Positions 3,951 through 19,936 are shown, counted from the stretch's first letter. The stretch is DNA of 44,018 nt from Candidatus Hydrogenedentota bacterium (GCA_034669905.1 JAXMOL010000061.1:1-44018); one strand, 5' to 3'. Notes: generated from the letters alone by a model not told the origin. Translations and numbers: made by a program.

Positions 3951-4232
3951 ATGATGATAAACTGCAAGCGCGCTGCGGAGTTGTCCTGTGCCAAATTGGA
4001 CCGCCCCCTGACTATTGGGGAAACGATGCAGTTGCGTTTCCATATCTTCATGTGCCGGGCCTGCAAGGGCTTTCAACTACAAAATGAAGCACTGCTACGT
4101 CTGTTTGAACAGCGCTTTCAAGAGCCGCGTGATGGCGCAGACAGCCACCTTCCGGAACTGCCGGAGGACGCCTGTGAACGGCTGAAGCAGTTGCTGCGTG
4201 ACGCATCGTCCGAATCCGGTTCGCCCGAGTAG
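3951..4232 (+). CDS. zf-HC2 zinc-binding anti-sigma factor (soluble)
   Basis: N-terminal NC plus HIFMCRAC (HxxxCxxC) motif, directly downstream of the ECF sigma; no TM segment visible. Confidence 0.85.
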   Translation: MMINCKRAAELSCAKLDRPLTIGETMQLRFHIFMCRACKGFQLQNEALLRLFEQRFQEPRDGADSHLPELPEDACERLKQLLRDASSESGSPE

Positions 4233-4246: not shown

Positions 4247-4275
4247 TGTAAGAATTCCCGTTTCGATACGACTCA
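4247..4275 (+). promoter_or_regulatory. Putative ECF promoter copy 1 (TGTAAGAA-N13-ACGACTCA)
   Basis: Bipartite motif upstream of the DoxX-like gene; recurs at 5002, 10906 and 19172. Confidence 0.75.
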
Positions 4276-4429
4276 CTCTCCAGATACACCATCGCGGGGG
4301 CATTGTACCCCGCGCACGGTATGTCGCGCAAGCGGAAGGTAAATGGTGCCATTCGGCTACACTGTGGCCTCCTTTCTGCTCGTGGCTGAAGAGCACCTTA
4401 CCGTCCCCTCAATCAAACGGAGAACCCCC

Positions 4430-4897
4430 ATGGAAACAATCGATCGTAAAGGTATGACGACATTCTCACAATTGCAAACCCGGGTCGCACAGTCGCTGTT
4501 ATTGCTCCGCCTGGGTGTTTTTCTGGTCATGCTCATGTGGACATTGGATAAACTAATTAATCCAGCGCATTCCGCGAAGGTGTTTGAGGGGTTCTATGCG
4601 ATTGGTGGCGTGGGCCATGGCCTCTTGATGGCACTCGGCATACTGGAACTGGTTTTGCTCTTGCTGTTTCTGGGGGGAATCTGGCGCCGTTTCAGTTACG
4701 GCTCGGTACTGCTATTGCATGCCATCTCAACGGTTGCCTCATTTGGAAAGTATCTCGACCCCTTTAACAACCTGTTGTTTTTTGCTGCCTGGCCCATGTT
4801 GGCGGCCTGCATAACCCTATATTGGTTACGCGACTGGGATACGTTGGGCGTGCTTGGTCGGCGAGGCCCCACCGAAACGGACCGCGCAGCGCAATAA
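4430..4897 (+). CDS. DoxX-like membrane protein
   Basis: LLLLRLGVFLVMLMWTLDKL, ~4 TM segments, GILELV; GGAG before ATG 4430. Confidence 0.7.
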   Translation: METIDRKGMTTFSQLQTRVAQSLLLLRLGVFLVMLMWTLDKLINPAHSAKVFEGFYAIGGVGHGLLMALGILELVLLLLFLGGIWRRFSYGSVLLLHAISTVASFGKYLDPFNNLLFFAAWPMLAACITLYWLRDWDTLGVLGRRGPTETDRAAQ

Positions 4898-5001
4898 CGA
4901 TAGCCTCTGCGGTCTACACACAACCGACAGGAGTCATTGGGCTTAGATGCGCTCAGTCCCATCGCCGCTCAGCCGTAGCAATCGTATGATTTTCGAATTC
5001 C

Positions 5002-5030
5002 TGTAAGAACTTCCCAATCCGAACGACTCA
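5002..5030 (+). promoter_or_regulatory. Putative ECF promoter copy 2 (TGTAAGAA-N13-ACGACTCA)
   Basis: Exact bipartite motif upstream of the DUF3179-arsM-pst unit. Confidence 0.75.
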
Positions 5031-5105
5031 CCTTTGAGACGCCCCACTACAACGGCAGGGCGAGGAATTGCCGTCTTGGACGGCATGACGTGAAGGAGCT
5101 TGGAA

Positions 5106-6134
5106 ATGCGTTCCGATACCAGGAAGAAATATGTCGCCCTGCTTGTCATCCTTCTATCGGGCCTGGCCCTGTATGTCAACTGGGAGCAGATTGCGCCGCT
5201 GTTTTCGTTTAGAGGGGCTGAAGGGGATAGCGCAAGCCCGGGTGACCGCGGCAAGGCCGCCGCGCTGGGTCTGTTTAATACGTCACACCTGACCGTACCC
5301 GTCGGGGAGATACATAGTGGTGGGCCCGGTAAAGACGGCATCCCATCTCTCAGCCACCCCGAAACCGTGGGCGTTGCTGAGATGGCGTTGCTCGCTCCGG
5401 AAGACCGCGTGGTCGGGGTGGAATTCGATGGGCAATCTCGGGCCTATCCCATTCGCCTGCTGAACTGGCACGAACTCATTAATGACCAGGTAGGCGATAC
5501 GCCGGTGGCCATTGTCTATTGTCCCCTCTGCGACTCGGTATCCGCGTTGGACCGGCGCATCGACAATCGAACGCTGGACTTCGGGATAAGCGGTCTGCTT
5601 CACAACTCAAACGTGTTGTTCTACGACCGCAGCGACAACGCGCTCTGGTCCCAGGTCAGCCTGGAGGCCATTAGCGGTCCACTCGCCGGACGATCCCTCC
5701 GTCATCTGCCCTTCTCCCTCACGACCTTCGCGGCGTGGCGCGAGACCCATCCAGACAGCACGGTAGCGACCTTCGAAACGGATCACCCCCGCGACTATGA
5801 ACGAAACCCCTATGCCCGCTATTTCGAGAGCGATGAACTCATGTTCCCCGTGAAGGGGACCGACCAGTCGCCGTTTCGAAACAAGGAACCGGTAGTGGGC
5901 GTTCGCAACGGGAACGAAGCACGGGCCTATCCGGTTTCCACCATCTCCGACACCGCCTCTGGGCAGGTTGAAGATACCCTTGGGGGTGAAAAGGTCATTC
6001 TGGAAGCCCGGAAAACCGGCACGCACGTTCAAGTCATTTCAGTTCCCGAAGGCGCGCAGGTGGTGCACACCTTCTGGTTCGCCTGGAAGGCATTCCACCC
6101 GGATACGACGATATACACACCCGAGTCAAATTAA
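5106..6134 (+). CDS. DUF3179 family protein with N-terminal membrane anchor
   Basis: SGGPGKDGIP, RAYP..LNWHELIND, YCPLC, FGISGLL.NSN, FWFAWKAFHP; AAGGAG upstream. Confidence 0.85.
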   Translation: MRSDTRKKYVALLVILLSGLALYVNWEQIAPLFSFRGAEGDSASPGDRGKAAALGLFNTSHLTVPVGEIHSGGPGKDGIPSLSHPETVGVAEMALLAPEDRVVGVEFDGQSRAYPIRLLNWHELINDQVGDTPVAIVYCPLCDSVSALDRRIDNRTLDFGISGLLHNSNVLFYDRSDNALWSQVSLEAISGPLAGRSLRHLPFSLTTFAAWRETHPDSTVATFETDHPRDYERNPYARYFESDELMFPVKGTDQSPFRNKEPVVGVRNGNEARAYPVSTISDTASGQVEDTLGGEKVILEARKTGTHVQVISVPEGAQVVHTFWFAWKAFHPDTTIYTPESN

Positions 6135-6148
6135 TAAAGGAAACCCCA

Positions 6149-7201
6149 ATGCCCCTGCAATCGACCACGCTGGACGATGTCAAAGAATATTACGGCACGA
6201 TACTGCAAAGCTCCGCCGACCTGAAAACCAACGCCTGCTGCAGCATTGATAGCGGCCTGTCGCCGCGGATCAAGAAAATCATGGGAGAAATCAACGACGA
6301 GGTCCTCAGCCGCTTCTATGGCTGTGGTTCCCCCCTGCCGCCTCTGCTGGAGGGGCTTACCGTCCTGGATTTGGGATGCGGCAGCGGGCGGGACGCCTTT
6401 GTCGCCTCCCGGCTTGTTGGTCCCTTGGGAACCGTCATCGGCGTAGATATGACCGAGGAGCAACTCGATGTGGCCCGGCGAAATGTGCCATCGCAAATGG
6501 AACGCTTCGAATATACACGGTCCAACGTCGAATTCCTGCATGGGTATATGGAAGACCTGGCATCCCTGGGGATCAAGGACAATTCGATAGACGTGGTCAT
6601 TTCCAACTGTGTTCTCAATCTCTCTCCGGAAAAAGAGGCCGTGTTCTCGGAAATCATCCGCGTCTTAAAGCCGGGCGGAGAGTTGTACTTTTCGGACGTC
6701 TTCTCCGGGTGCCGGGTGCCGGAGGAATTGCAGCGCGATCCCATACTGCATGGCGAATGTCTGTCGGGAGCGCTCTACCGGGAAGACTTCCGCCGGATGC
6801 TGCGCCGGACGGGCTGCCTCGACTACCGGGAATGCGCCAGTCGCCGGATCACCATCGACTCACCGGAAATCGAAGCAAGGATCGGGATGATCGACTTCTA
6901 CTCGGTCACGGTACGGGCCTTTAAGCTTCCCGAACTCGAGGACCTCTGCGAAGACTACGGTCAAATCGCCACGTACCGGGGCGGAATTCCCGACTGTCCA
7001 CACCACTTTGATCTGGACGATCACCATCGTTTCCTTAAAGATAAGCCGATGCTGGTATGTGGCAACACGGCCGCCATGCTCGAAGAGACCCGCTATGGGG
7101 CCTACTTCGACGTCCAGGGAGACCGCTCCCGCCATTTCGGCCCGTTTGACTGCACGCCAGACGGGAACACGTCTGTGGAGCACGGCGGCACGTGCTGCTG
7201 A
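6149..7201 (+). CDS. arsM: Arsenite S-adenosylmethionine methyltransferase (ArsM/AS3MT-like)
   Basis: DLKTNACC, FYGCGSP, VLDLGCGSGRD, SNCVLNL, GECLSGALY; C-terminal CC. Confidence 0.85.
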   Translation: MPLQSTTLDDVKEYYGTILQSSADLKTNACCSIDSGLSPRIKKIMGEINDEVLSRFYGCGSPLPPLLEGLTVLDLGCGSGRDAFVASRLVGPLGTVIGVDMTEEQLDVARRNVPSQMERFEYTRSNVEFLHGYMEDLASLGIKDNSIDVVISNCVLNLSPEKEAVFSEIIRVLKPGGELYFSDVFSGCRVPEELQRDPILHGECLSGALYREDFRRMLRRTGCLDYRECASRRITIDSPEIEARIGMIDFYSVTVRAFKLPELEDLCEDYGQIATYRGGIPDCPHHFDLDDHHRFLKDKPMLVCGNTAAMLEETRYGAYFDVQGDRSRHFGPFDCTPDGNTSVEHGGTCC

Positions 7202-7252
7202 TCACGTGGAGCGTTGGTGGTGCCCTCTAACTCATTGGAGAAGGACCAGAAA

Positions 7253-8107
7253 ATGTTTGATGGAAGTCGTCGTAGAGCGGGCTTAGCCACGGTACTTTTA
7301 ATCCTTGCGGTACTCTCCGGGTGCGGGCAGCCTTCATCCGAAACGCCTGGCCAGGGGACCGGCGAAGCAGGCAAGCTGATACTGACTGGATCCAGCACCG
7401 TCGCGCCGCTGGCGCAAGAAATTGGACAGCGCTTTGAGGTGGCCCATCCCGGCGTTCGCGTGGACGTTCAAACCGGCGGGTCGTCCCGTGGAATCGCCGA
7501 CGCACGCGCGGGAACCGCCACCATCGGCCTGGTCTCGCGACCGTTGAAAGCCGATGAAACGGATTTGACGGCCCACACGATCGCCTTCGACGGTATAGGT
7601 GTGATCCTCCACGCCACCAACCCGATTGATTCGCTCAGTGACGAACAGGTGCGCTCGATCTATCGCGGTGAAACCTCACGATGGAGCGGGGTCGGTGGCA
7701 ACGATGCTGCCATCACCGTAGTCAACAAGGCAGAGGGCCGTTCGACGCTGGAATTGTTCCTGGCCCACTACGGACTCCGGAGCGACGAAATCCAAGCGTC
7801 CGTGGTCATCGGGGATAATGAACAGGGAATCAAGGCCGTATCCACCAATCCCGACGCGATTGGGTATGTAAGTGTCGGCGCTGGGGAATTCGCCGCCCTG
7901 GATGGGGTCCCGATCAAGTTGCTGCCACTCGGGGACGTAACGCCTTCCACGGAAAATATCAAGCGTGGCGTGTATCCGCTGTCCCGCCCGTTGAACCTGG
8001 TCACGAAAGGCGCGCCGGATGACATGGCCCGCCAGTTTATCGACTTCGCCCAGTCCACTTCGGTGAACGACCTGATCACCGGACTTTACTATGTTCCGCT
8101 TACGTAG
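7253..8107 (+). CDS. pstS: Phosphate-type ABC transporter substrate-binding lipoprotein (divergent PstS)
   Basis: Lipobox LSGC, GSSTV, GGSSRG, AIGYVS, YPLSRPL. Confidence 0.85.
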   Translation: MFDGSRRRAGLATVLLILAVLSGCGQPSSETPGQGTGEAGKLILTGSSTVAPLAQEIGQRFEVAHPGVRVDVQTGGSSRGIADARAGTATIGLVSRPLKADETDLTAHTIAFDGIGVILHATNPIDSLSDEQVRSIYRGETSRWSGVGGNDAAITVVNKAEGRSTLELFLAHYGLRSDEIQASVVIGDNEQGIKAVSTNPDAIGYVSVGAGEFAALDGVPIKLLPLGDVTPSTENIKRGVYPLSRPLNLVTKGAPDDMARQFIDFAQSTSVNDLITGLYYVPLT

Positions 8108-8990
8108 GCCCGAGCGTTTGAAAAACAGCGCGCCCGGTTGGAAGGATTTTCTGCTGGCCGGAGGGCTGCGGCTCGGTGCCGTGGCGAGTGGCTCCATTGT
8201 GCTGCTGGTAGGTGCCCTCTTGTTTCGAGAATCGCTGCCGGCATTGGGCTCCGTAGGTTCCGACTTTTTATCGGATCGTAGCTGGCATCCCGCGCCCCTT
8301 TCGAAAGACGGGACGTTCGGACTGTTGCCCATGGCCGCCGGTACGCTCGCGGTTACCATGGGGGCCATCGCCCTGGCGGCACCGTTCGGTGTCATGTCCG
8401 CCGTCGTATGCCACGACTACGTTCCCCCGTGGCTGGGAATCCTGTACAAGCGCATGATCGAACTTATGGCGGGCGTTCCATCGGTGGTTTACGGACTCTG
8501 GGGAATGACGGTGCTGGCTCCTATGATTCTGGCGTGGCGCGCACCCGGGGTGAGTCTGCTGGCGGGCATTATCGTTCTGGCGTTGATGGTGCTCCCTACG
8601 GTGGCGCTACTTTCCGAATCTGCCCTGGCGGGCGTTCCTGAAGAATACGCACGGGGTGCCCGGGCGCTGGGGATGACGCGTGCTCGTATTCTCTGGGGCG
8701 TCTCCATGCCAGCGGCGCGCTCGGGAATCGTTACGGGCGTCATTCTGGCCATTGGTCGGGCCCTTGGTGAGACCATGGCAGTGCTGATGGTCACCGGCAA
8801 CGTCGTACAGTTCCCGTCCAGTCTGCTCGATCCGATTCGCGCACTTACGTCCAATATTGCGCTGGAAATGGCCTATGCCATGGGCGATCACCGGTCCGCG
8901 CTCTTCGTATGCGGACTTGTCCTCACGGCGATGGTTGCGCTACTGGTCGTTGCGGCGGAAGTATTGAGTAAGGGGAATACCCATGCGTAA
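8091..8990 (+). CDS. pstC: Phosphate-type ABC transporter permease PstC
   Basis: ELMAGVPSVVYGLWG, GRALGETMAVLMVTGN; exact start uncertain. Confidence 0.88.
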   Translation: MFRLRRPERLKNSAPGWKDFLLAGGLRLGAVASGSIVLLVGALLFRESLPALGSVGSDFLSDRSWHPAPLSKDGTFGLLPMAAGTLAVTMGAIALAAPFGVMSAVVCHDYVPPWLGILYKRMIELMAGVPSVVYGLWGMTVLAPMILAWRAPGVSLLAGIIVLALMVLPTVALLSESALAGVPEEYARGARALGMTRARILWGVSMPAARSGIVTGVILAIGRALGETMAVLMVTGNVVQFPSSLLDPIRALTSNIALEMAYAMGDHRSALFVCGLVLTAMVALLVVAAEVLSKGNTHA

Positions 8991-9870
8991 GACGGGCCGG
9001 CCCTCCCCCACCCTCCACGCACCGTCGACACGCGACTGGCTGGAGTCCCTGACCTGGTTGGTCGTCTGGGGCACCGTAGTTGTCGTTGGGGGCACCTTTC
9101 TCTGGATCGTATCGGATGTCGTCTGGCGCGGGATGCCGGGCATCGGCTGGGATTTCCTGATAGCGGCCGTGCAGCGCTCGGGGCGGGAAGGCGGAATCGG
9201 CCCAATCCTGGTTTCAACTGGACTTGTGTTGGCCGTCTGTCTCGCGGTCGCCGTGCCGCTTGGGCTTCCGGCGGCGATCCTGCTCTCCGAATACTCGGCG
9301 GAAGCCAACCCCCTCGCCGCCTGGGTGCGGCGCGCCCTCGATGTATTGGCCGGCGTGCCCTCCATCGTTTTCGGCCTATTCGGCAATGCGTTCTTCTGCA
9401 TCTATCTCGGCATGGGATTTTCCATTCTCTCGGGCGGACTGACGCTGGCCTGCATGGTCTTGCCAATCTTTATCCGAAGCGCTGCGGAGGGCTTTCGATC
9501 GGTGCCGGACCACTACCGCCTGGCGGGTCTGGCACTCGGAATGTCCCGCGCGCGGCTCTTGTTCCAAATCCAGTTGCCCGCTGCCCTGCCGGGCCTCGCC
9601 GTCGGCCTGATACTGGGTACGGGTCGTGCGCTCGCCGAGACCGCCGCGTTGATTTTTACCAGTGGCTACGTCACACGAATGCCTTCGTCATTGGGGGATT
9701 CTGGCCGCACGCTCTCGGTACATATTTACGACCTGGCAATGAATGTGCCCGGTGGTGGGACCAATGCCTACGCCACCGCACTCGTGCTGGTTGTGCTACT
9801 GGTGATTATCAATACGATCACCTACTGGATCGCGGAGCATGGACTACGCAAGAGGATTCTATCGGTATGA
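8983..9870 (+). CDS. pstA: Phosphate-type ABC transporter permease PstA
   Basis: LAGVPSIVFGLFG, GRALAETAALIFTSG, TLSVHIY. Confidence 0.88.
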   Translation: MRKTGRPSPTLHAPSTRDWLESLTWLVVWGTVVVVGGTFLWIVSDVVWRGMPGIGWDFLIAAVQRSGREGGIGPILVSTGLVLAVCLAVAVPLGLPAAILLSEYSAEANPLAAWVRRALDVLAGVPSIVFGLFGNAFFCIYLGMGFSILSGGLTLACMVLPIFIRSAAEGFRSVPDHYRLAGLALGMSRARLLFQIQLPAALPGLAVGLILGTGRALAETAALIFTSGYVTRMPSSLGDSGRTLSVHIYDLAMNVPGGGTNAYATALVLVVLLVIINTITYWIAEHGLRKRILSV

Positions 9871-10763
9871 GTGAAATTACCCCGTTTCGGAAGAGAAACA
9901 CGCCCGCACTAAGGTCCCTTCAAGGCTCCTGTGTTCGCAACGCGCCTGCCCGTGTCTGCCACCGGAATTGTGCCCCGGAGGCCCCCCAGACCACGAAACC
10001 GAATAAAATGATGGTCGAGTGCCTGAGCGTCCAATACGGAAGCGCTATCGCACTCTGCGATGTTTCGCTGCCGCTCCCGGAGCGTGAAATTACAGCGCTC
10101 ATTGGGCCGTCGGGCAGCGGTAAGACCAGTTTTCTGGGTGCGCTGAACCGCATGGTGGAACTGGCCCCGCGCTGCCGTGTTACGGGCCGCGTAGTGCTCG
10201 ACGGCGAGGACGTATACTCAGCGTCGGCGAATCTAACGCGACTCCGCCGCCGTGTAGGGATGATATTTCAAAAGCCCAACCCCTTTCCCCTCAGTATTCG
10301 GAAAAACATAACCCTGGCCCTTTCGGAGCAAGGGGTACGGCTCAAAGCCGACCAGGAATGTGTCGTGGAAAAGGTGCTTCGCGGCGTCGGCCTGTGGGAC
10401 GAAGTGAAAGACCGGCTTGGCAAGTCGGCGTTGGATTTGAGCGGTGGCCAGCAGCAGCGACTCTGCATTGCCCGGGCGCTGGCGCTCCAACCCGAAGTAT
10501 TGCTCCTGGACGAGCCATGCAGCGCCCTCGACCCAATTTCCAGCGAAACGATTGAAGACCTCATTGTCGGTCTGCGGGAACGACTCACGATTGTTATCGT
10601 CACCCACAACCTGGGGCAGGCGTGTCGCATAGCCGATACCGTGGCCCTCTTCTGGCAGCAGGACGGCACGGGCCGGTTGGTGGAACACGGCATCTGTTCG
10701 CAGATTTTCGAGGATCCCTGCGAAGATCTGACCGCCAGTTATGTACGCGGCCGCAAAGGGTAA
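9867..10763 (+). CDS. pstB: Phosphate-type ABC transporter ATP-binding protein PstB
   Basis: GPSGSGKT, FQKPNPFP, LSGGQQQRLCIARAL, LLLDEPCSALDP; ATGA overlap with pstA. Confidence 0.9.
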   Translation: MSEITPFRKRNTPALRSLQGSCVRNAPARVCHRNCAPEAPQTTKPNKMMVECLSVQYGSAIALCDVSLPLPEREITALIGPSGSGKTSFLGALNRMVELAPRCRVTGRVVLDGEDVYSASANLTRLRRRVGMIFQKPNPFPLSIRKNITLALSEQGVRLKADQECVVEKVLRGVGLWDEVKDRLGKSALDLSGGQQQRLCIARALALQPEVLLLDEPCSALDPISSETIEDLIVGLRERLTIVIVTHNLGQACRIADTVALFWQQDGTGRLVEHGICSQIFEDPCEDLTASYVRGRKG

Positions 10764-10905
10764 CGTCGGGCTGACGACGGGGTCCAATCGTGGCCGGGAG
10801 CCCAATCGATGGGTGCGAAGCATGGTGAGCGTGGGGCACGTTCGACATGAATCTTTGTGAGTGACGTGCCCCCCCCACTTCTTCTCAATAACTTTTACGA
10901 TTCGG

Positions 10906-10935
10906 TGTAAGAAAGTGACTCCCAGCGACGACTCA
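10906..10935 (+). promoter_or_regulatory. Putative ECF promoter copy 3 (TGTAAGAA-N14-ACGACTCA)
   Basis: Bipartite motif 38 nt upstream of the arsS start. Confidence 0.72.
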
Positions 10936-10972
10936 TAGGCGTAATCAATCGAAACGTCTGAGAGGAGTCACT

Positions 10973-11956
10973 ATGCAAGCTGCGCTGGCCGAAAGAACCA
11001 TCGATGAAGAGCAATCCTTCCTGTGCCGCGTACAGGAGGCCACGGGTGAGGCGCTCAACGGCGCTTCCCTGAATACGGTCCAGGTAAATATCGGGCTGAA
11101 GTGTAACCTGGCCTGCCGGCACTGCCATGTGGAATCCTCGCCCAAGCGCGAAGAGGCCATGTCCTGGAGCACCATGCAGGCGGTCCTCGGAGCCGCACGG
11201 CGCGCGGGCAGCCATACCCTGGACATCACGGGAGGGGCACCGGAAATGCATCCCCACTTTCGGGAATTCGTGGATGGGGCCATTCGCCAGGGACTCCATG
11301 TCATTGTGCGAACGAATCTGACCATCCACTTGCAGCCCGAATACGCTGGTATGACGGACTTCCTCGCGGAGCGCTCCGTCCATCTCGTGGCGTCATTGCC
11401 CTGCTACCTGCCCAATAACGTGGACAAACAACGGGGCCGGCATGTTTACCGAGACAGCATCGCCGTCATTCAACAACTCAACGCATTGGGGTATGGCTCG
11501 CTTCACGGCAAGCAGCTGGATCTCGTGTATAACCCCGGGGGGCCCAGCTTGCCGCCCGAACAGGAAGCCCTCGAATCCGCCTACCGAAAAGCGCTTCATT
11601 CCGAGTTTGGTATCCGATTCAACAAGCTTTACACCATCACCAACATGCCGATTGGCCGATTCATTCAGGATCTGGCCCGGGCAGGCGATGCAGCGCCCTA
11701 TCAGGCGCTCCTACGGAACGCATTTAACCCCGACACCATCGACGGTTTGATGTGTCGGCATCAGCTACACGTCGGCTGGGACGGCAGTCTGTACGACTGC
11801 GATTTTAATTTTGCCCTCGGACTTCCCGCCCATGGCGGCGGCAACGTAGTCGATTTCAATCCGGAGCTATTCCGCACACGGCGCGTGGCCACCGGTGCGC
11901 ACTGCTTCGCCTGTACCGCCGGTTGCGGCTCGTCTTGCAGTGGCGCGATCACCTGA
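10973..11956 (+). CDS. arsS: Arsenosugar biosynthesis radical SAM protein ArsS family (DUF3641 C-terminus)
   Basis: CNLACRHC, DITGGAPE, ASLPCY, YDCDFN, C-terminal HCFACTAGCGSSC; GAGGAG RBS. Confidence 0.88.
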   Translation: MQAALAERTIDEEQSFLCRVQEATGEALNGASLNTVQVNIGLKCNLACRHCHVESSPKREEAMSWSTMQAVLGAARRAGSHTLDITGGAPEMHPHFREFVDGAIRQGLHVIVRTNLTIHLQPEYAGMTDFLAERSVHLVASLPCYLPNNVDKQRGRHVYRDSIAVIQQLNALGYGSLHGKQLDLVYNPGGPSLPPEQEALESAYRKALHSEFGIRFNKLYTITNMPIGRFIQDLARAGDAAPYQALLRNAFNPDTIDGLMCRHQLHVGWDGSLYDCDFNFALGLPAHGGGNVVDFNPELFRTRRVATGAHCFACTAGCGSSCSGAIT

Positions 11957-12007
11957 CGACCACGTCCTTAACAATATTCTCTAATTAACCAGGAGGACTT
12001 TTGCCTA

Positions 12008-13678
12008 ATGAATCTAAACACGGACCGATCAGACAAAAAGGGTGTGGCGGGCCCTGCGACCGACGCCCCATTGGAGCGCGCCCCAGCCGCGACGCTTGTA
12101 AAGCGCCTGTCCCAGGCGGTCATTGTACTTGGAATTCTGGCGTTGCTCCGCCTCCTCCCGGCCGCACAGGCCGTCGAGTCGTTGATAGCCTGGGTGGAGC
12201 AACTCGGGCCCCTCGCCCCCTTCGCATTCATCGGCGCGTATTTCGTGGTCACGGTGTTCATGTTGCCCGCCTCACTGCTCTCGCTGGCCGCCGGTGCTCT
12301 TTTCGGGTTGTTCACGGGAACACTTGTTGTAGCGGCGGGAGCCACGCTGGGAATGGCGGCCACCTTTCTCATTGGCCGCTACCTGGCCCGTCCGGCGGTC
12401 GAGCGGCGCTTTAAGCACAATCCCCGCTTCACGGCAATAGACCGCGCCGTGGGCATGGGCGGTTGGAAGATCGTGGCGCTGTTGCGACTCTCCCCCGCTG
12501 TACCCTTCAATTTACAGAACTATCTCTACGGGCTGACCGCCATTCGTTTCTGGCCCTGCATACTCGCCAGTGCAGTATCGATTCTCCCCGGCACCTTCAT
12601 GTATGTCTATTTTGGCTACGCAAGTCGCGCCAGCCTCGATGCTATCGGCGGCTCGGGTGCCGCCCGGGGTCCGGGCCAGTGGGCACTGTTGATTGTCGGC
12701 CTGGCCGCCACCGTCGCAGTTACGATCTACGTTACGAAACTGGCCCGCGACGCGATCAAGGAGCAGGCCGATTTGGAATCCCCTGCGCCGCCGACAGAAA
12801 CCGAGGACCAGGTAGCACCCACCCAAAATCCATGGCGTGGTGCGCTGACAAGCGCCTTCCTGGCAACCGCAATCCTGGCGGCAGCAGGAGTGCTGCAGTT
12901 TAGGCCCCCATGGCTCATATCGCTCTTCGGGCCGCCGGCCGTAACCCTGAATGAGGCCTATGCAGCCAACGCGGACAGCGCGCACTTCGATCATTCGGCT
13001 TTTGACGTCCTGCTCAAGAAACATGTAAATGGCAACGGCGGGGTTGACTACCGTGCTTTGAAAAACGATGCCGATGCTCTCCATGCCTATGTCGCCTCTC
13101 TGGCCACGGCCCCCTTCAACGAAATGGGGCGCGATGAGAAACTGGCTTTCCTGATAAACGCTTACAACGCGTTTACGCTTAACCTGATTGTGGAGTGGCT
13201 GGACAAAGACATTGATTCCATTCGCGGTATTCCCGCCGACAAGCGCTGGGACGACGTCCGTTGGGAAGTGGCGGGAAACACGTGGAGCTTGAGTCAGCTC
13301 GAGCACGAGCAGATCCGCCCGAAGTTTCAGGAGCCCAATATCCACTTTGCCCTGGTCTGCGCCGCCGTGGGCTGCCCCCCTCTCCGCGCGGAGGCCTATA
13401 CCGCCGCGCACCTTGAAGAGCAACTGGCCGACCAGGCCCGAGTAGTGCACAGAAACGGCTCGCGTTGGTTTCAGCTCGCCCCCGTCAATGACACGCTCCA
13501 ACTGACGTCGCTCTACGAATGGTATGGCGGCGACTTTGAACAGATCGAAAAAAGTATTTTGGACTACGCGGCGCGCTATGCACCTGAACTCGCCGAATTG
13601 CTTCATTCCGGGAAGCGCCCCACTATCAAATGGCTCGACTATGATTGGTCCTTGAACAACCAGGAGAACTTGAATTGA
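12008..13678 (+). CDS. TVP38/TMEM64 (DedA/VTT) membrane domain fused to DUF547 domain
   Basis: LLRLSPAVPFNLQNYLYGLT; then VDY, INAYNA, IHFALVCAAVGCPPL, YDWSLN. Confidence 0.85.
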   Translation: MNLNTDRSDKKGVAGPATDAPLERAPAATLVKRLSQAVIVLGILALLRLLPAAQAVESLIAWVEQLGPLAPFAFIGAYFVVTVFMLPASLLSLAAGALFGLFTGTLVVAAGATLGMAATFLIGRYLARPAVERRFKHNPRFTAIDRAVGMGGWKIVALLRLSPAVPFNLQNYLYGLTAIRFWPCILASAVSILPGTFMYVYFGYASRASLDAIGGSGAARGPGQWALLIVGLAATVAVTIYVTKLARDAIKEQADLESPAPPTETEDQVAPTQNPWRGALTSAFLATAILAAAGVLQFRPPWLISLFGPPAVTLNEAYAANADSAHFDHSAFDVLLKKHVNGNGGVDYRALKNDADALHAYVASLATAPFNEMGRDEKLAFLINAYNAFTLNLIVEWLDKDIDSIRGIPADKRWDDVRWEVAGNTWSLSQLEHEQIRPKFQEPNIHFALVCAAVGCPPLRAEAYTAAHLEEQLADQARVVHRNGSRWFQLAPVNDTLQLTSLYEWYGGDFEQIEKSILDYAARYAPELAELLHSGKRPTIKWLDYDWSLNNQENLN

Positions 13679-15231
13679 GCGAAACGATTTCTACAGAAGC
13701 AACGATTGAACCTCACCTCGAAGCGGCGCTCCAACCGCTGGACGAACACAATCTCACCTTACAGGGCCACACGAAACCGACGGACTGGAAAAACCCCGTC
13801 CCCGCCGGGCGCTATAACCTTGTCGTCATCGGGGCCGGCCCCGCAGGTCTGGTGGCCGCAGCGGGTGCCGCGGGTCTTGGAGCCAAAGTAGCCCTCGTCG
13901 AGCGCTCCCTGATGGGCGGCGACTGCCTGAATGTGGGGTGCGTGCCCAGCAAAGCACTGATCCGTTGCGCCCAGGCCGCGGCAGATGTACGTGATGCCGC
14001 ACAATTTGGCGTCAACGTAGGTGGAGATGTCCAGGTCGATTTTGGCGCAGTGATGGAGCGCATGCGTCGACTGCGGGCCGACTTGAGCCATCACGATTCC
14101 GTCGCCCGTTTCACCGAACTGGGTATCGATGTATTCCAAGGCGATGCCCGTTTTGACGGCAAACATTCGGTCGCCGTGGGCGATGCGCGACTGAGTTTTT
14201 CGAAAGCGCTGATCGCCACGGGCGCCCGCGCCATCGCGCCGCCCATTCCGGGCCTGGAAGAAGCGGGATATCTGACCAATGAGACAGTCTTCTCGCTCAC
14301 GGAACGGCCGTCGCGTCTTGCCGTCGTCGGTGCCGGACCTATCGGGTGCGAGCTGGCCCAGGCCTTCGCCCGGCTCGGCTCCGTTGTCACGCTGGTGGAA
14401 TCGGGTTCTCGGATCCTTCCGCGCGAGGAGACTGAAGCCGCGGAAATCGTTCACCGTGCCCTCGTCCGCGATGGCGTCATGATCGTCTGCGGCGGAAAAG
14501 CCGCGTCCGTCCGAAAGGAGGGCGAGGAGAAGGTGCTCGAACTGCATTGCCACGGAGAAGACCACGAGGTTCGTGTAGATGCCATTGTGATCGGCGTAGG
14601 GCGGGCGCCCAACGTGGAAACACTCAATCTCGAGGAAGCGGGCGTCGAATACGACGAAAAAAAAGGCATTCGCGTAGATGATTTCCTGCGCACCAGCAAT
14701 ACGAACATTTATGCCGCGGGCGATGTTTCATCGGTGTACAAATTCACCCACTCCGCCGATGCTCTCGCACGTATTGTGCTACGTAACGCGCTGTTTTTCG
14801 GGCGTGACAAGGCTAGCGCACTTGTCATTCCGTGGAGCACCTACACCGATCCCGAAGTGGCGCATGTTGGAATGACCGACGAAGACGCCACGCAGCGTGG
14901 AATCGAAACCCATACGATTTCCGTTCCACTGAACGCCGTGGACCGCGCGGTCCTCGACGGGGAAGATGAAGGATACATTCGCATCCTTTTGAAGGCGGGT
15001 TCGGACCAGATGTTGGGCGCGACCCTGGTGGCCCGACACGCAGGAGACATGATTTCCGAAATAACCGCGGTCATGGTCGCCGGAAAAGGCCTGTCGTCCC
15101 TGGCCAAGACCATTCACCCCTATCCCACGCGGGCGGAAGTGATCAAGCGAGCCGCAGACGCCTACAACCGCCAAAAATTGACGCCGCGCGTCAAGAACCT
15201 ATTTGAAAAGCTACTTTCGTGGCGGAGATAG
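13675..15231 (+). CDS. Mercuric reductase-like / dihydrolipoamide dehydrogenase-like FAD-dependent disulfide oxidoreductase
   Basis: GAGPAG, GGDCLNVGCVPSK, GAGPIGCE, YAAGD, HPYPT; TTG start overlaps the upstream stop (TTGA) after AGGAG. Confidence 0.85.
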   Translation: MSETISTEATIEPHLEAALQPLDEHNLTLQGHTKPTDWKNPVPAGRYNLVVIGAGPAGLVAAAGAAGLGAKVALVERSLMGGDCLNVGCVPSKALIRCAQAAADVRDAAQFGVNVGGDVQVDFGAVMERMRRLRADLSHHDSVARFTELGIDVFQGDARFDGKHSVAVGDARLSFSKALIATGARAIAPPIPGLEEAGYLTNETVFSLTERPSRLAVVGAGPIGCELAQAFARLGSVVTLVESGSRILPREETEAAEIVHRALVRDGVMIVCGGKAASVRKEGEEKVLELHCHGEDHEVRVDAIVIGVGRAPNVETLNLEEAGVEYDEKKGIRVDDFLRTSNTNIYAAGDVSSVYKFTHSADALARIVLRNALFFGRDKASALVIPWSTYTDPEVAHVGMTDEDATQRGIETHTISVPLNAVDRAVLDGEDEGYIRILLKAGSDQMLGATLVARHAGDMISEITAVMVAGKGLSSLAKTIHPYPTRAEVIKRAADAYNRQKLTPRVKNLFEKLLSWRR

Positions 15232-15278
15232 CCTACCCCCTGGCTGTATATGAATCGAACAATCGAATGGAGCACGAA

Positions 15279-15719
15279 ATGACTGAAAGCAAATATAACG
15301 TAAAAAGCGAAAACGTCGAAGTACCGTTTGCGCGAAAGCAGTCGGGGACACTGCGGGAGAGACTCCTCATCGGCACGCTGGTCGCCGCTGCCGGCTTGTG
15401 GGGCTTCGGTCAGTATCAACAACGAAGCCTTCAAGCCTCGGCCGCACCACTCGTGGAGCAGGCCCTGAAAGAAAACATCACACCCGATGTGGAGGCCGCA
15501 TCAAATCTCACGGTAGCGCGGAAGACGCCATTATTCGGAACGCCGGTGGCCAAGGTGGAAGTGTTTATCCGAAAGGCCGGTGGCGGTGCCGATGACACTA
15601 TTGGCGGAATTGAGTACGAGTATGCCTTTGAGAATGGGGAATGGCAGTTGAAAAATAGTGGCGGTTGCACAAGTGAGGCGTGCATCGTCCGTGGGAAGGA
15701 TGCGTTTTCGAAACAATGA
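15279..15719 (+). CDS. Hypothetical single-pass membrane protein with C-terminal CxxxxC
   Basis: GGAG before ATG; one TM helix; GGCTSEAC; ATGA overlap with the next gene. Confidence 0.6.
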   Translation: MTESKYNVKSENVEVPFARKQSGTLRERLLIGTLVAAAGLWGFGQYQQRSLQASAAPLVEQALKENITPDVEAASNLTVARKTPLFGTPVAKVEVFIRKAGGGADDTIGGIEYEYAFENGEWQLKNSGGCTSEACIVRGKDAFSKQ

Positions 15720-17584
15720 GCTACAACCACCTGAACAAATTGTGGCGTGCATCATCCCTGCTTCAGGAGTATCTCCTGGGTCGCCTGATCTTCTGGAAAT
15801 TGCGCCGCCAGTTTCAGCCCATATTTGCCGAGGTCGATCCGCTGGCGACCTACCTGGAGTTCGATCTCTTTCCCGACCTGCGGCAAAATAAGGTAGTCCA
15901 AATTTCCGTCGCCTGTGATTCGACGTCCGGTGAACTTCACTTTCAGGGTGCAGGACAGCGGTGTGAGCGGATACCCTACAAGGCCCCCCACCTCGTGGAG
16001 GAGTTCACGCGCCGAGGTATCCACCAGATCGAGCTTGACACCGTGCTGGAGTCGGGGCAGATTGGCGAGGCCATCTCGCTCCTACTCCGGGCACGACTCG
16101 CCCTCGAATTCGCCGAGCCCAGTGATGTTGCATATACCGGCTGGGCACCCGAGAAAATTGCTGCCACACTTCTTGGCCCGAAGGGGTACAAAAAGTTCTG
16201 CGCCATCCTCCGCGTTGACCGCAGTCAACGCAGCCTCTCGGTGGAATACTCCTACTGTCCCCTCTTCTTCAGTCGCCTCGTACAACGGTATACCGCCTCG
16301 GCTGGCCGATTTTCGGACCATCGCGCCTTTTTTCGGCTGGCGCCACGGGCCGCACTCTTCACACTGCTCCTTTTCGCAGCACCGGCCATATTCCTGCTCG
16401 TCGGTCCGAGTTTTTCCGTTGCCGCCACCCTGCTCGTCGGGATTCTCGGCGCAACGCTGGTTTGGCTGGGTATTCACACCATCGGAGCCATCCAATACGA
16501 CAAGGAACATTACGAGAAAGCTCGTGAATCATATCTGGAGGAGACGCGGCATCTGGCGCGTTTTCCCGAAGTAAATCCCGACCCCGTCTTGGAGATCACC
16601 ATGGGCGGCGAGTTTCGCTACGTCAATCTTGCCGCACTGCAATTGCTCGCTACAATGGGTGGGGTGCCTGCGGAAAGAGACGCACTGCTCCCGGAGGACC
16701 GGGTCCAACGAACACAGCGCGCAATGCAGTCACCTGACCGACGCGATACCTTCGAACACACCGTTGGCAATCGGATCTTTCAATACACCGCGACGGCTTT
16801 TCCTGACGAAAAAACGGTAATTGTCTCGGGAAGAGACGTAACCAACTTGAGACACGCAGAATCGGAACTGCGCTCCCTCAATTTCGATCTGGAAAGAAAG
16901 GTCAGCGAGCGCACGCTCGAACTCGCGCTGACCCAGGATGTCACTATCATGTGCCTGGCGGGACTGGCCGAGACGCGCGATCCAGAGACGGGACGTCACC
17001 TCGACCGCACGCGACACTATGTACGTGTCCTAGCGGAGAAGCTCCGTGTCCACCCACGCTTTGAAAAGTTGCTGTCCGACGCTTCGGTGCAAACGGCATT
17101 CAAATCCGCGCCGCTTCACGATATCGGAAAAGTTGGAGTCTCCGATGCCGTGTTACTGAAACCCGGAGAGCTTACCGATGAAGAGTTTGACGAAATTAAA
17201 ACCCATTGTAAACTCGGCGGCGATGCGCTCCGAATCGCGGAAGAGCGCATGGGATTTAACACGTTCCTGACCATGGCCAAAGAGATCGCTTACTACCATC
17301 ATGAACGGTGGGATGGTCGGGGCTATCCATTTGGTAAAAGTGGCGAGGATATTCCGTGGGCGGCACGCCTGATGTCTGTGGCCGATGTATACGACGCTCT
17401 CACCTCGAGGCGGCCCTACAAAGAACCATGGTCCCATAGCGACGCGCGGGCTGAGATTCTCAAGCATCGTGGCTCGCAATTTGACCCTGATGTGGTGGAC
17501 GCATTCATCGCTACGGAGGATGAATTTGTACGACTATCCAAGGAGTACGCCGAGCCCCGGCAACCCGACGCGGAAAGCGCTTGA
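15716..17584 (+). CDS. Membrane-bound HD-GYP domain c-di-GMP phosphodiesterase with PAS-like region
   Basis: RDPETGRH, LHDIGKVG, HHERWDGRGYP, ADVYDAL, RPYK; 2 TM segments; FPEVNPDPV. Confidence 0.88.
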   Translation: MSYNHLNKLWRASSLLQEYLLGRLIFWKLRRQFQPIFAEVDPLATYLEFDLFPDLRQNKVVQISVACDSTSGELHFQGAGQRCERIPYKAPHLVEEFTRRGIHQIELDTVLESGQIGEAISLLLRARLALEFAEPSDVAYTGWAPEKIAATLLGPKGYKKFCAILRVDRSQRSLSVEYSYCPLFFSRLVQRYTASAGRFSDHRAFFRLAPRAALFTLLLFAAPAIFLLVGPSFSVAATLLVGILGATLVWLGIHTIGAIQYDKEHYEKARESYLEETRHLARFPEVNPDPVLEITMGGEFRYVNLAALQLLATMGGVPAERDALLPEDRVQRTQRAMQSPDRRDTFEHTVGNRIFQYTATAFPDEKTVIVSGRDVTNLRHAESELRSLNFDLERKVSERTLELALTQDVTIMCLAGLAETRDPETGRHLDRTRHYVRVLAEKLRVHPRFEKLLSDASVQTAFKSAPLHDIGKVGVSDAVLLKPGELTDEEFDEIKTHCKLGGDALRIAEERMGFNTFLTMAKEIAYYHHERWDGRGYPFGKSGEDIPWAARLMSVADVYDALTSRRPYKEPWSHSDARAEILKHRGSQFDPDVVDAFIATEDEFVRLSKEYAEPRQPDAESA

Positions 17585-17854
17585 CGGCCAGCATGAAGAT
17601 TCCTGTCTTAGACCAGACGCAGGACCGCGGATGGCCAAATTATTCTCCAGGTTTCGAAACGCAGCATTTAAACAAGACCAATCTTAGTCCGCCTAGGGGT
17701 TATCTAAGGTGCCGCCAGCTCATTTTACCGGGAACCAAAAAAAGGCGTAATCGCCACAAATCCTGTGCCGCATTGATATGCAAACCCGCACCCTATGAAT
17801 ACATACCTGCTTTACTAACCAATATCACTATGTTACCAACACAAGGAGTTACCC

Positions 17855-18484
17855 ATGAATAAATCTACTTACATCACGTTTGCGGCGACGCTTTCCATGG
17901 CTGTGGTGTCCACGGTCGCCTACGCCGCCGGAAGTGGCACCAAGAGCGCGAACCCTGAAATGGGGGAAATTGGCGACCCGGCACCCGCACTCAAAATCTC
18001 CAGCTGGGTGAAGGGCGAGCCCGTCAATCTCGCGGAGGGAAAAGGGAAGCGGGCGTACCTGGTTGAGTTTTGGGCAACGTGGTGTCCGCAGTGTGAAAAG
18101 GTGATTCCCCATCTATCGGAAATCCAAGCGAACTATGGGGACAGTGGCCTCTCGGTAGTAGCCGTCTCGATGGAAGAAAAAGAGGTGGTGGAAGACTTCG
18201 TAACGTCGAAGGGGGTGGCGATTGGCTATACCGTCGCGCTTGACAAGGACCAGCAGACCGTTATGGCCTATATGACGAAGTTCGGGCTGAATGGCATCCC
18301 GGCCTCATTTCTGGTCGACAAGCAAGGCAAGATTACGTGGGTAGGTCATCCCGCCGATCCGGAACTTCAGACGCAGCTCGCTAAACTCTTCCCCCAGGCG
18401 GAGAAAAGCGAAGCGCGCGGCAGCGCCACGAAACCTGCGCACGGGAAGAAGAGAACGGCATCTGGGGGCTCCAGCTCGAAATAG
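17855..18484 (+). CDS. TlpA-like thiol:disulfide redoxin, exported
   Basis: Signal peptide, EFWATWCPQC, GIPASFLVD; AAGGAG RBS. Confidence 0.88.
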   Translation: MNKSTYITFAATLSMAVVSTVAYAAGSGTKSANPEMGEIGDPAPALKISSWVKGEPVNLAEGKGKRAYLVEFWATWCPQCEKVIPHLSEIQANYGDSGLSVVAVSMEEKEVVEDFVTSKGVAIGYTVALDKDQQTVMAYMTKFGLNGIPASFLVDKQGKITWVGHPADPELQTQLAKLFPQAEKSEARGSATKPAHGKKRTASGGSSSK

Positions 18485-18563
18485 TGCCACCGCAAATTAC
18501 GCAATGCGCGGAGCTCCACTCGGGCTCCGCGCATTCTCGTGGCTCCGTCTTCATTCTATTCGT

Positions 18564-18959
18564 TCACGCTATGGGAAGACGTTCACCCCGCGCATAGCGC
18601 GCAACGTCCATGATGTCGAGCACCAGGGAAAGGGTATTAGAAAGCACAACCAACCCGAGCCACCAACGATAGGGCGTCTCACCCTCACCCGTCGCCAACA
18701 GAAATACGAAGTATAGGCTGAGCGGAGTCCACGCTACGATATGCCCCAATCCGAGCAGGCGAACGAATCCCCGCCTTGCGTGTATGGCGGCCATGACTCC
18801 GAAGGCAAGCGCCATTGCCATGATGGCCGCCCCCCCTGCTGGTCGGTCAACGTACCAGAAAGCACCACCCAGATTAACCACGCTGAGATGGAACACCCAG
18901 AGGTTCCAGGGGAAGGGCATTCTTATGATCGCCTTCATCAACTTCAGTATGTTGCGCAC
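18564..18959 (-). CDS. Small 4-TM hypothetical membrane protein
   Basis: Hydrophobic ORF with RLLGLGHIVAW and SLVLDIMDV; GTG start after AAAGGGGA. Confidence 0.6.
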   Translation of the reverse strand: MRNILKLMKAIIRMPFPWNLWVFHLSVVNLGGAFWYVDRPAGGAAIMAMALAFGVMAAIHARRGFVRLLGLGHIVAWTPLSLYFVFLLATGEGETPYRWWLGLVVLSNTLSLVLDIMDVARYARGERLPIA

Positions 18960-19171
18960 TTGCTGTTCCCCTTTGAAAAAGTAGGGACCTCCGATTGCAT
19001 ACACCATGCAATTCCAACGCCAGGTAACGTTGAGTGACGAGAGATCGAATGGACGGCTCACGCTCACTCCAAGCTCTGCACCTGGCCCCGTTCAATTCGG
19101 AGCGAGACGTATCCCATGTCATCCCGCTTTTCCTTCCTGCTCACGCGTCGAAACCTTTATTTAAACTTTGG

Positions 19172-19200
19172 TGTAAGAATCGGGCAGCTACGACGACTCA
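19172..19200 (+). promoter_or_regulatory. Putative ECF promoter copy 4 (TGTAAGAA-N13-ACGACTCA)
   Basis: Exact motif upstream of the RiPP precursor; a degenerate copy TGTAATAT-N13-GCGACTAA lies at 19283-19311. Confidence 0.7.
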
Positions 19201-19480
19201 CCAATGTAAGAAGCCTTGGTCAAGATGTGTAATCGCTGGAATCGCAGGGGCTTTGACGCCCCTACACATCCAAAATTGAAGCTGTAATATTTTGATGGAT
19301 TCCGCGACTAATCTGGTGTTGGCTGGATTTCACGGGTTACCACAACTAGAAAGCCTCGCAAACGTTGTCGCGCTGAAAGGCTGGGTATATCGCAATGGAA
19401 TCCACCATCAGTCCGTAGTTCGCCAAACCACAGGTCTGGCGAAAATATTGAAGTCCTAATCAATTAAAAGGAGAATGCAC

Positions 19481-19936
19481 ATGGTTGAAAAGAAAGTTTC
19501 CCGCCGCAGTTTTTCGTCTCTGACCCTTGCCGCCGCCGCCGGTATTGTGGGTGGCTCCCGCATGGCCTCCGCCGCCGACAGGGGCTCTGGCACCAAGAAA
19601 AAAAAGGCGGACGCGGATTTTCCCGTGGATCCTGCGCTGTTGCTCCAAGACCCGAATGTATGTCGCGGGCTGAACAGCTGCAAGGACCACGGTAAGGGCG
19701 ACCACGCCTGTGCGGGCCAAGGTGCCTGCGCCACGGCCAAGGCCCATGCCTGTAATGGGATGAACGAGTGCAAAGGCCAAGGCGGTTGTGGCGGCTATCC
19801 CGGACAGAACAACTGCAAAGAGCACGGGCATTGCGCTGTTCCCCTCAGTAAGGACTCCTGGGAACTCGCCCGCAAACAATATGAACACCTCATGACGAGC
19901 CTCGACAAGAAATTCAGTCCTGCGCCTTCTGTCTAA
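19481..19936 (+). CDS. Tat-exported Cys-rich bufferin-like (BufA2-like) RiPP precursor/metallophore
   Basis: SRRSF twin-arginine signal; 9 Cys in Cx5C repeats (CRGLNSC, CAGQGAC, CNGMNECKGQGGC, CKEHGHC); adjacent to DUF692. Confidence 0.8.
   Translation: MVEKKVSRRSFSSLTLAAAAGIVGGSRMASAADRGSGTKKKKADADFPVDPALLLQDPNVCRGLNSCKDHGKGDHACAGQGACATAKAHACNGMNECKGQGGCGGYPGQNNCKEHGHCAVPLSKDSWELARKQYEHLMTSLDKKFSPAPSV

Follow-up and report, generated by a model that had tools for sequence, protein, structure and literature searches.

A bipartite promoter-like motif shared by arsenic, phosphate-uptake and RiPP genes, and its probable reading by an adjacent ECF sigma factor in a Candidatus Hydrogenedentota bacterium

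Introduction

In Streptomyces coelicolor, the sigma factor sigmaR, which reads promoters of the form GGAAT…GTT, is paired with RsrA, a soluble anti-sigma factor that is inactivated by thiol-reactive agents. The textbook control of ars operons is ArsR-type repression. Both are pertinent to the DNA considered in this study, a contig of 44,018 nucleotides from a Candidatus Hydrogenedentota bacterium (GCA_034669905.1, JAXMOL010000061.1:1-44018), which I will refer to, at its full length, as the window. It encodes an extracytoplasmic function (ECF) sigma factor and a small zinc-finger (ZAS) anti-sigma factor, followed by four copies of a bipartite motif, TGTAAGAA-N13/14-ACGACTCA, that stand ahead of genes for arsenic metabolism, phosphate uptake and a ribosomally synthesized and post-translationally modified peptide (RiPP). 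An initial annotation, made from the sequence alone, proposed that the motif is a promoter and defines a regulon.

The closest described systems are those of Neisseria and Haemophilus influenzae. Neisseria sigmaE (NMB2144) is paired with the ZAS anti-sigma factor MseR (NMB2145) (PMC2893595, PMC3240639). The consensus of 24 sigmaE promoters consists of a -35 element GTMAGBWTT and a -10 element CGTCTAAH, 12-13 nt apart, and six nt further on a conserved A, the mapped start of msrAB; the sigmaE operon also encodes DoxX, DUF692 and DUF2063 proteins (PMC2893595). The primary transcriptome of Neisseria has rpoE in a six-gene transcript (PMC5449619). In H. influenzae, a small ZAS peptide, HrsE, is co-transcribed with the sigma factor RpoE2, which controls neighbouring genes and a DoxX cluster and, in work that made use of a heterologous E. 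coli reporter assay, exhibits only weak autoregulation; the same paper terms the Neisseria/SigR type 'ECF group 13' (PMC7907618).

Two further systems bear on the locus in other ways. Caulobacter sigmaF-NrsF controls the bufferin operons buf1 and buf2 (PMC11626156, PMC12452194), and a survey of bufferin clusters, which examined five genes on each side, reports sigma genes, accompanied by NrsF anti-sigmas, in Buf1 but not Buf2 clusters (PMC12452194; the word stem 'arsen' is absent from the paper). In E. coli, the rseA promoter P3 is a sigmaE-dependent promoter that lies inside the rpoE coding region, transcribes the anti-sigma gene, and provides negative feedback (PMC8595263). The sigma/anti-sigma type of the window and its promoter class are already known; the likeness of its sigma factor to those of Neisseria and Haemophilus is drawn from published descriptions.

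Results

The pattern TGTAAGAA-N10-18-ACGACTCA has four matches in the window, searched as a whole contig, all of them on the + strand (P1 to P4 in Table 1), and none in 100 dinucleotide shuffles of the window, which bears out the initial description of two identical 8-mers in four intergenic copies with variable spacers. The genome-wide search proposed in the same annotation gave an equally sharp result: in the assembly of 7,443,872 bases and 102 contigs, these four sites are the sole exact copies of the motif. When spacers of 12-15 nt are allowed, the assembly contains no site with one mismatch, three with two mismatches and 72 with three, and since these counts leave a gap below the exact sites, the four constitute a separate class and not the top of a continuum. 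Among relaxed patterns, which were devised after the sites were known, TGTAAG[AG][AT]-N13/14-NCGACT[CA]A finds the same four sites and no others in the assembly and none in the reversed sequence, while the very loose GTAAG-N16-18-CGAC[TC][AC]A matches the reversed control as often as the genome (10 times each), and its matches outside the contig are noise. As had been noted, the right half of the window has no complete copy, the sole match there (41317) having three mismatches.

The four copies have mutually unrelated spacers and flanks, and are therefore not duplications. Every site lies on the strand of its downstream gene, 30-280 nt ahead of it. The array of + strand genes between 4.2 and 21.9 kb has four intergenic gaps of more than 100 nt, each of them occupied by one of the sites. 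Every transcription unit of this 18-kb island is therefore headed by the motif. The initial annotation had placed the copies upstream of doxX, DUF3179-arsM-pst, arsS and the RiPP precursor; positions and strand are as it gave them, but the label doxX is weak, resting on a sub-threshold match to MauE.

A degenerate second copy, P4', follows P4, as the initial annotation also stated. It has a counterpart, TGTAAGAT-N13-GCGACTAA, in a genome of the same genus (G004) and is absent from the shorter leader of a more distant genome (G110), while P4 itself is kept in G004 and before the orthologous precursor gene in G110. There is also an extra GTAAGAA at 19205-19212, 5 nt past the -10 box of P4 and at the predicted start, that has no -10 partner. 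It is kept in three genomes, those of the window, G004, and G110 (locus L187, where it reads GTATGAA).

The sigma factor encoded just ahead of the island scores well above the cut-off of the NCBIfam sigma70-ECF model TIGR02937 (86.3 against 42.9) and just short of that of TIGR02943 (161.3 against 162.2). Searched against its own genome, which on first look has 31 ECF-like candidates, it finds only itself at E<=1e-20. The anti-sigma gene begins 4 nt past the sigma stop codon, and its product is the only one in the genome to match NF052368 above the cut-off; the sigma/anti-sigma pair is kept in all nine genomes that have the sigma ortholog. The protein has no hydrophobic segment, and a search of PDB sequences with it returned nothing at E<=1. 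It carries the motif C9-x25-H35-x3-C39-x2-C42, which conforms to the ZAS pattern C/H-x23-26-H-x3-C-x2-C, and, in addition, C17 and C79. These two cysteines are invariant in the nine orthologs (the window, G004, G057, G100, G110, G121, G122, G124 and G125). Anti-sigma factors of the wider family, in two sets totaling 73, keep the four zinc ligands, but the position of C17 is Cys in 0/32 and 0/41 of them and that of C79 in 1/32 (a doubtful open reading frame) and 0/41.

I take the four sites to be, very probably, promoters read by this adjacent sigma factor, with GTAAG as the -35 core and CGACT as the -10 core, in keeping with the earlier view that the layout is typical of ECF promoters. Counted in the manner of the Neisseria consensus, the sites read GTAAGAAnn-N12/13-CGACTCAy, the spacer being 12 nt at three sites and 13 at one. 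The GTAAG core of the -35 consensus is present in 4/4 sites; at position 6 they have A, against the B (not A) of the consensus, and positions 8-9 vary. The -10 element agrees with CGTCTAAH at 6/8 positions. Among 10 sites in three genomes, an A falls on the sixth nt past the box in six and on the seventh in four. Cores (GTAAG and CG.CT.A) and spacing are those of the Neisseria sigmaE consensus, with a departure from it at three positions.

By homology with the Neisseria sigmaE/MseR and H. influenzae RpoE2/HrsE systems, region 4.2 of the sigma factor would read GTAAG and region 2 CGACT, with transcription starting some 6-7 nt past the -10 box. The anti-sigma factor would hold the sigma factor by means of its Zn(Cys3His) site until attack on the thiols brought about release, whereupon the four co-directional units would be switched on. 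These units would provide for the methylation of arsenic and the synthesis of organoarsenicals, a selective uptake of phosphate, thiol-redox repair, and a Cys-rich peptide in the periplasm.

Orthologs of the sigma factor (E<=1e-60) are found in 9 of 135 genomes of the phylum, with identities of 60-92%. The exact motif occurs in 5/9 of these genomes and in 0/126 of the others (the reversed control gives none anywhere), and a motif-like site stands directly after the anti-sigma gene in 9/9. The four ortholog genomes that lack the exact form carry GTAAGGTT…GCGACTCA or GCGACCTA in its place, with a Neisseria-like -35 element. G004, whose sigma factor is 92% identical, has orthologs of all four sites, three of them exact and one with TGTAATAA as its first half. 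Between this genome and the window, the boxes differ at 1/64 positions and the spacers at 18/53 (Fisher p=1.2e-6, boxes against spacers), and 40-nt flanks differ at 36-54% of positions in an ungapped comparison. P3 is retained despite different DNA and a different neighbourhood upstream of arsS. The comparison supports purifying selection on the boxes while the spacers drift. With the consensus, this footprint, the co-occurrence with the sigma ortholog and the constant position behind the anti-sigma gene agreeing as four independent lines, the claim that the adjacent sigma factor is the reader gains considerable support.

The unit behind the anti-sigma gene contains DUF3179 and/or arsM in 7/9 ortholog genomes; in the window genome (G000) and G004, the DUF3179/arsM unit comes after the DoxX-like gene. 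The unit in G057 is DUF3179-DsrE-aquaglyceroporin-arsM-rhodanese-fatty-acid hydroxylase-PHO4-arsS, and in G100 it is arsM-rhodanese-fatty-acid hydroxylase-arsS-VTT/DUF547-flavoprotein-glycosyltransferases. DUF3179 follows the site in G121, G122 and G124, with arsM as well in the first two; the contig of G124 stops past DUF3179 and that of G125 past the site itself. The gene behind the site in G110 encodes a GH15 hydrolase, but this genome has an exact motif about 165 nt before its orthologous precursor-MNIO-DUF2063 cluster, 16.5 kb from its sigma gene. The link to the RiPP cluster therefore recurs in a second family with another gene order, an independent recurrence of the connection between arsenic genes and RiPP locus that the initial annotation had drawn. 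In G057 a second exact site precedes a gene for a CBM48 protein and adjoins MerC and flavoprotein reductase genes.

Two loci of family f5 show the promoter type before genes of carbohydrate-related families: in G057 (L019, C165, 2191-2219) the CBM48 gene is followed by genes for a DACNV-domain protein and a GH63-like hydrolase, and in G110 (L101, C63, ~2625-2653) the gene is glucodextranase-like (GH15).

Distant relatives of the sigma factor (30-49% identity), from Bacteroidota, Verrucomicrobiota, Desulfobacterota, Nitrosomonas, Planctomycetota and others, have GTAAGG…CGACTAA or CGTCTAA after the anti-sigma gene or upstream of the sigma gene; a scan of metagenome contigs gave no ortholog above 49% identity. 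Five of these relatives (L108, L110, L121, L050 and L031) adjoin homologs of arsM and/or arsS, and others adjoin genes for MsrAB, AhpC, rhodanese/thioredoxin, DsrE, MerC, DoxX or VTT-flavoprotein. Overall, the sigma family has the look of a stress system for thiols and soft metals. This branch of it is linked to the methylation of arsenic and the synthesis of organoarsenicals, and phosphate transporters accompany it (Pst in the window, PHO4 in G057).

The same observations weigh on other ways of accounting for the motif. The sites might be promoters that are read by some other ECF-type sigma factor of the genome, there being 31 candidates on first look and no clear motif upstream of the adjacent sigma gene itself. 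This is highly improbable, given that the exact motif appears only in genomes that have an ortholog of the adjacent sigma factor, that a site lies directly behind its anti-sigma gene in every ortholog genome, that the motif matches the consensus of characterised relatives of its type, and that the genome has one sigma factor of this family only. Nor is there much to be said for the motif as the operator of a classical repressor or activator. ArsR-type repressors normally control arsenic genes, and identity at 16/16 positions is unusually strict for a promoter. The two halves, however, do not form a direct repeat, nor an inverted one, and a spacing of 13 or 14 nt with free spacer sequence is typical of -35 and -10 elements. 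The sites all share the strand of their downstream genes, 30-280 nt away, and no ArsR/SmtB, MerR or other DNA-binding family besides the sigma factor is found among the 26 open reading frames (ORFs) of at least 40 aa from 35 to 21920. DUF2063 has come to be regarded as a recognition partner of RiPPs (PMC11626156). I would give an operator very little credence.

Identical 8-mers that recur within 15 kb could also be what is left of a mobile element or a dispersed repeat, or recur by chance, and a common dispersed repeat was the prospect that the initial annotation itself had set against its proposal. It is contradicted by the lack of any further copy in 7.44 Mb and by the unrelated spacers and flanks; the shuffles yielded nothing, and in two families the boxes have been kept amid DNA that has diverged. 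Such an origin is next to inconceivable.

Several points nonetheless weigh against taking the four sites as promoters of the adjacent sigma factor. Three positions of the motif are at odds with the Neisseria consensus: the -35 element has A in place of B, and the -10 element has A in place of T and C in place of A. The genome has about 30 further ECF-like candidates that might be the reader, the nine ortholog genomes represent two families and are not independent, and further sites may lie on missing DNA because the assembly is 95.7% complete. The sequencing runs listed as containing the region are nine of DNA type from four studies, with none of RNA. Autoregulation is usual for ECF sigma factors, and no good copy of the motif is present upstream of the sigma gene here. 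The sigma gene of G100 does have a copy upstream, TGTAAGAA-N13-TCGACTAA, at a distance of about 180 nt.

One candidate upstream of the sigma gene in the window, GGTAAAGA-N13-ACGATTGG (3215-3243), was rejected, as its second half is the stem of a hairpin and it is unconserved in G057. The hairpin (3234-3263, + strand) is terminator-like, with a 12-bp stem and a run of T, and lies 33 nt before the sigma start and 90 nt past a PQQ/BamB-like gene (1778-3142).

A further promoter-like copy lies within the sigma gene itself, where its codons encode I-C-K-T-L-E-I-S-A-T-N of region 4.2 (Table 1). Many relatives have TGTAAGGA-N13-CCGTCTAA or ACGACTAA at the same place. Conservation beyond that of the protein was assessed at third-codon positions, with the codon usage of the individual locus as the standard; the loci had been retrieved with peptide patterns that leave the codons of the boxes uncovered. 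In a first set of 56 family members, the three greatest synonymous excesses among 168 columns all fall at the intragenic boxes: the xCG codon of the -10 box (42 observed against 15.5 expected, z=8.4), the xAG codon of the -35 box (41 against 19.4, z=6.6) and the TGT codon (42 against 26.3, z=4.5), where the z-scores ignore phylogeny. The second set drew its 56 members from metagenome contigs, and there the same two columns rank first and second of 171 (z=6.6 and 5.7); 52 of these members gave a match to the first set, with an identity of 90% or more in only one case.

These excesses suggest that the intragenic copy is kept by selection at synonymous sites. Its simplest reading is as a predicted sigma-dependent internal promoter that would transcribe the anti-sigma gene alone, so that freed sigma factor would cause synthesis of its own antagonist, a negative feedback. 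In the literature searched, no description of an internal promoter in sigma genes of this family came to light.

Table 1. Motif copies, regulatory genes and other features of the window. Scores are given against model cut-offs where available.
Feature	Position	Strand	Description and evidence
P1	4247-4275	+	TGTAAGAA-N13-ACGACTCA; predicted start near 4282; exact in G004
P2	5002-5030	+	TGTAAGAA-N13-ACGACTCA; predicted start near 5037; TGTAATAA-N13-ACGACTCA in G004
P3	10906-10935	+	TGTAAGAA-N14-ACGACTCA; predicted start near 10942-10943; exact in G004
P4	19172-19200	+	TGTAAGAA-N13-ACGACTCA; predicted start near 19207-19208
P4', degenerate second copy	19283-19311	+	TGTAATAT-N13-GCGACTAA
Intragenic promoter-like copy	3804-3832	+	TGTAAGAC-N13-GCGACCAA; region 4.2 codons, ~100 nt before anti-sigma start
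ECF sigma factor, 212 aa	3297-3935	+	Pfam Sigma70_r2 60 bits, Sigma70_r4_2 34.4 bits, no other regions
ZAS anti-sigma factor, 97 aa, small cytoplasmic	3939-4232	+	zf-HC2 20.6 bits; NF052368 antisigmaE 53.6 (cut-off 50)
Unit 1: DoxX/MauE-like membrane protein	4343-4897	+	Pfam MauE 20.1 bits (cut-off 27; sub-threshold)
Unit 2: DUF3179-arsM-PstS/C/A/B-type transporter	5100-10763	+	Pfam; gaps <=14 nt or overlaps
DUF3179 gene	5100-6134	+	Pfam
arsM (arsenite methyltransferase)	6149-7201	+	Solved arsenite methyltransferase 5evj, E=1.6e-104, residues 10-339
PstS/C/A/B-type phosphate ABC transporter genes	7214-10763	+	Pfam; PstS TIGR02136 169.4 (below cut-off 206.6)
Unit 3: arsS and eight genes, redox or unknown, tightly packed	10973-19037	+	ORF map, Pfam
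arsS, arsenosugar radical-SAM	10973-11956	+	TIGR04167 407.4 (cut-off 300)
Unit 4: precursor, MNIO and DUF2063	19475-21920	+	Pfam, NCBIfam
Cys-rich precursor	19475/19481-19936	+	BufA2 NF050166 only 23.2 (cut-off 60)
MNIO BufB-type maturase	20033-20965	+	NF050167 357.7 (cut-off 310); Pfam MbnB_TglH_ChrH 363 bits
DUF2063 partner	20973-21920	+	PF09836 70.9 (cut-off 27.2); NGO1945_C 27.2
tmRNA gene	22682-23041	-	Rfam RF00023, 192 bits; directly after island end

Scans against Pfam (the same 26 ORFs) and NCBIfam, taken with the ORF map, give a predicted regulon that consists of one island of four co-directional units. The DoxX/MauE-like protein is 76% identical to its counterpart in G004. The arsM product, well matched by a solved structure, falls under the cut-off of the NCBIfam ArsM models (193 against 263). 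Unit 3 encodes, in order, ArsS, a VTT+DUF547 protein, a MerA-like flavoprotein disulfide reductase, orf166, an HD-domain protein, orf93, AhpC/redoxin, orf70 and orf98. BufA2 is a family of exported precursors with 6/12 Cys; the precursor here has nine Cys in repeated C-x5-C-like units after a signal-like N-terminus, SRRSF…ASA. No Msr domain was found by Pfam among the ORFs of the island.

The coding strand switches past 21920, and a tmRNA gene follows, the sole match to Rfam at gathering thresholds in the whole window; the 270-nt leader before the precursor has no match. The folding of the leader (19207-19490) is not compelling (z=-1.98), and in G110 the promoter is kept while the remainder of the leader is unconserved.

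Three side observations concern individual genes. The N-terminus of the precursor (…KKVSRRSFSSLTLAAAAGIVGG…ASA, 19475-19570) resembles a twin-arginine signal; for bufferin precursors, Sec signals are reported (PMC11626156). The HD-domain gene, 634 aa in the window, is represented in G004 (L017, C167, ~4690-5170) by three short pieces that correspond to residues 1-106 and 567-625, and there appears to be a large internal deletion in that genome. Finally, a single protein encoded on a contig of Nitrosomonas aestuarii (L028, 11789-13927) fuses VTT and the MerA-like flavoprotein reductase, functions that in the window (12008-15231) belong to adjacent, overlapping genes.

Discussion

The gene content of the island, together with C17 and C79, leads me to propose tentatively that the inducing signal is arsenite, or the thiol stress that arsenite causes, a possibility that I rank below the sum of its alternatives. 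The pattern of the two cysteines fits an added thiol site of the As(III) type, evidence that is weak because the nine orthologs form one clade. Other considerations tell against arsenite: two distant members that adjoin arsM-arsS (L108 and L110) lack both extra cysteines, the pst genes could equally indicate phosphate stress, and characterised relatives respond to HOCl, H2O2 and paraquat (PMC7907618). With these in mind, I would offer a fuller scheme only as a speculation, possible but rather doubtful, in which the pair is a new kind of arsenic sensor. Arsenite would attack the ZAS anti-sigma factor with its two extra cysteines, and the freed sigma factor would call up arsM/arsS, arsenate-proof phosphate uptake, thiol repair and a bufferin-like peptide, which would bind metalloid and not copper, while the intragenic promoter re-made the anti-sigma factor.

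ECF control of arsM/arsS or of DUF3179 was not found described among the papers listed by a literature search, as judged by their titles and the openings of their abstracts. The searches brought up no precedent for three features predicted here from sequence comparison: ECF/ZAS rather than ArsR control of genes of the arsM/arsS type, a Buf2-type bufferin-like cluster under an ECF/ZAS sigma factor, and a common promoter for arsenic, phosphate-uptake and RiPP genes. The system has two further peculiarities, in that autoregulation is unseen in this genome and that all 16 positions of the boxes are invariant over the four sites.

If the prediction is true, a sigma/anti-sigma switch would constitute a second regulatory logic for arsenic genes besides ArsR, and the synthesis of organoarsenicals would be tied to the sensing of thiol stress. 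The association with arsenic genes is a recurrent one: most of the orthologs show it, these being spread over two families, and so do distant relatives that belong to other phyla. The presence of a Buf2-type cluster in a regulon with arsenic and phosphate genes hints that some bufferin-like peptides may handle metalloids. The system is compact (one sigma factor, an anti-sigma factor of 97 aa, four natural promoters with invariant boxes), which makes direct testing by reporter in E. coli feasible and the system itself a candidate orthogonal expression part. The synonymous-site signal in the sigma gene illustrates, in addition, that comparative analysis alone can reveal regulatory DNA within coding sequence.

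How does the locus stand beside the described systems? It shares with sigmaR-RsrA the zinc site Cys-x25-His-x3-Cys-x2-Cys in a soluble anti-sigma factor, but differs in promoter and in ECF group, and its anti-sigma factor has two further invariant cysteines. With ArsR-governed ars operons it has in common the placing of regulated arsenic detoxification genes beside their regulator; here, however, no ArsR family was found in the island, and control is predicted to run through promoter recognition by a sigma factor subject to an anti-sigma factor.

With Neisseria sigmaE/MseR the likeness takes in an ECF sigma factor with a small cytoplasmic ZAS anti-sigma factor, promoters with GTAAG and CG.CT.A cores, a spacer of 12-13 nt and an A some 6 nt further on, and a small local regulon that includes a DoxX/DUF692/DUF2063-type cluster, to which MNIO and DUF2063 behind P4 correspond. 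The boxes are nevertheless GTAAGAA and CGACTCA in the window and GTAAGGTT and CGTCTAA in Neisseria. Moreover, the sigma and anti-sigma genes come first here, with no visible autoregulation, and msrAB is not a target, no motif lying outside the island; the predicted regulon instead has arsM, arsS, DUF3179 and pst. The targets of RpoE2/HrsE are msrAB and a DMT transporter, with no arsenic genes, and its inducers are the three oxidants already named (PMC7907618). The RpoQ/RsqA-gig system of Cupriavidus was considered as a possible equivalent and rejected, since RpoQ belongs to ECF16 and has a membrane anti-sigma factor and other motifs (PMC13492112).

The putative intragenic promoter resembles rseA P3 (PMC8595263) in being embedded in the sigma gene for the benefit of the anti-sigma gene alone. 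It differs in belonging to another ECF group and in its position in the codons of the region 4.2 helix, and it is deduced from synonymous-site conservation only. Caulobacter sigmaF provides the parallel of an ECF sigma factor set over bufferin-type RiPP clusters with MNIO and DUF2063 and a DoxX accessory gene, but NrsF is a membrane anti-sigma factor, in place of which the window has a ZAS peptide. Finally, where the bufferin survey places sigma genes in Buf1 clusters, the cluster of the window is Buf2-like and lies 15 kb from the sigma gene predicted to control it.

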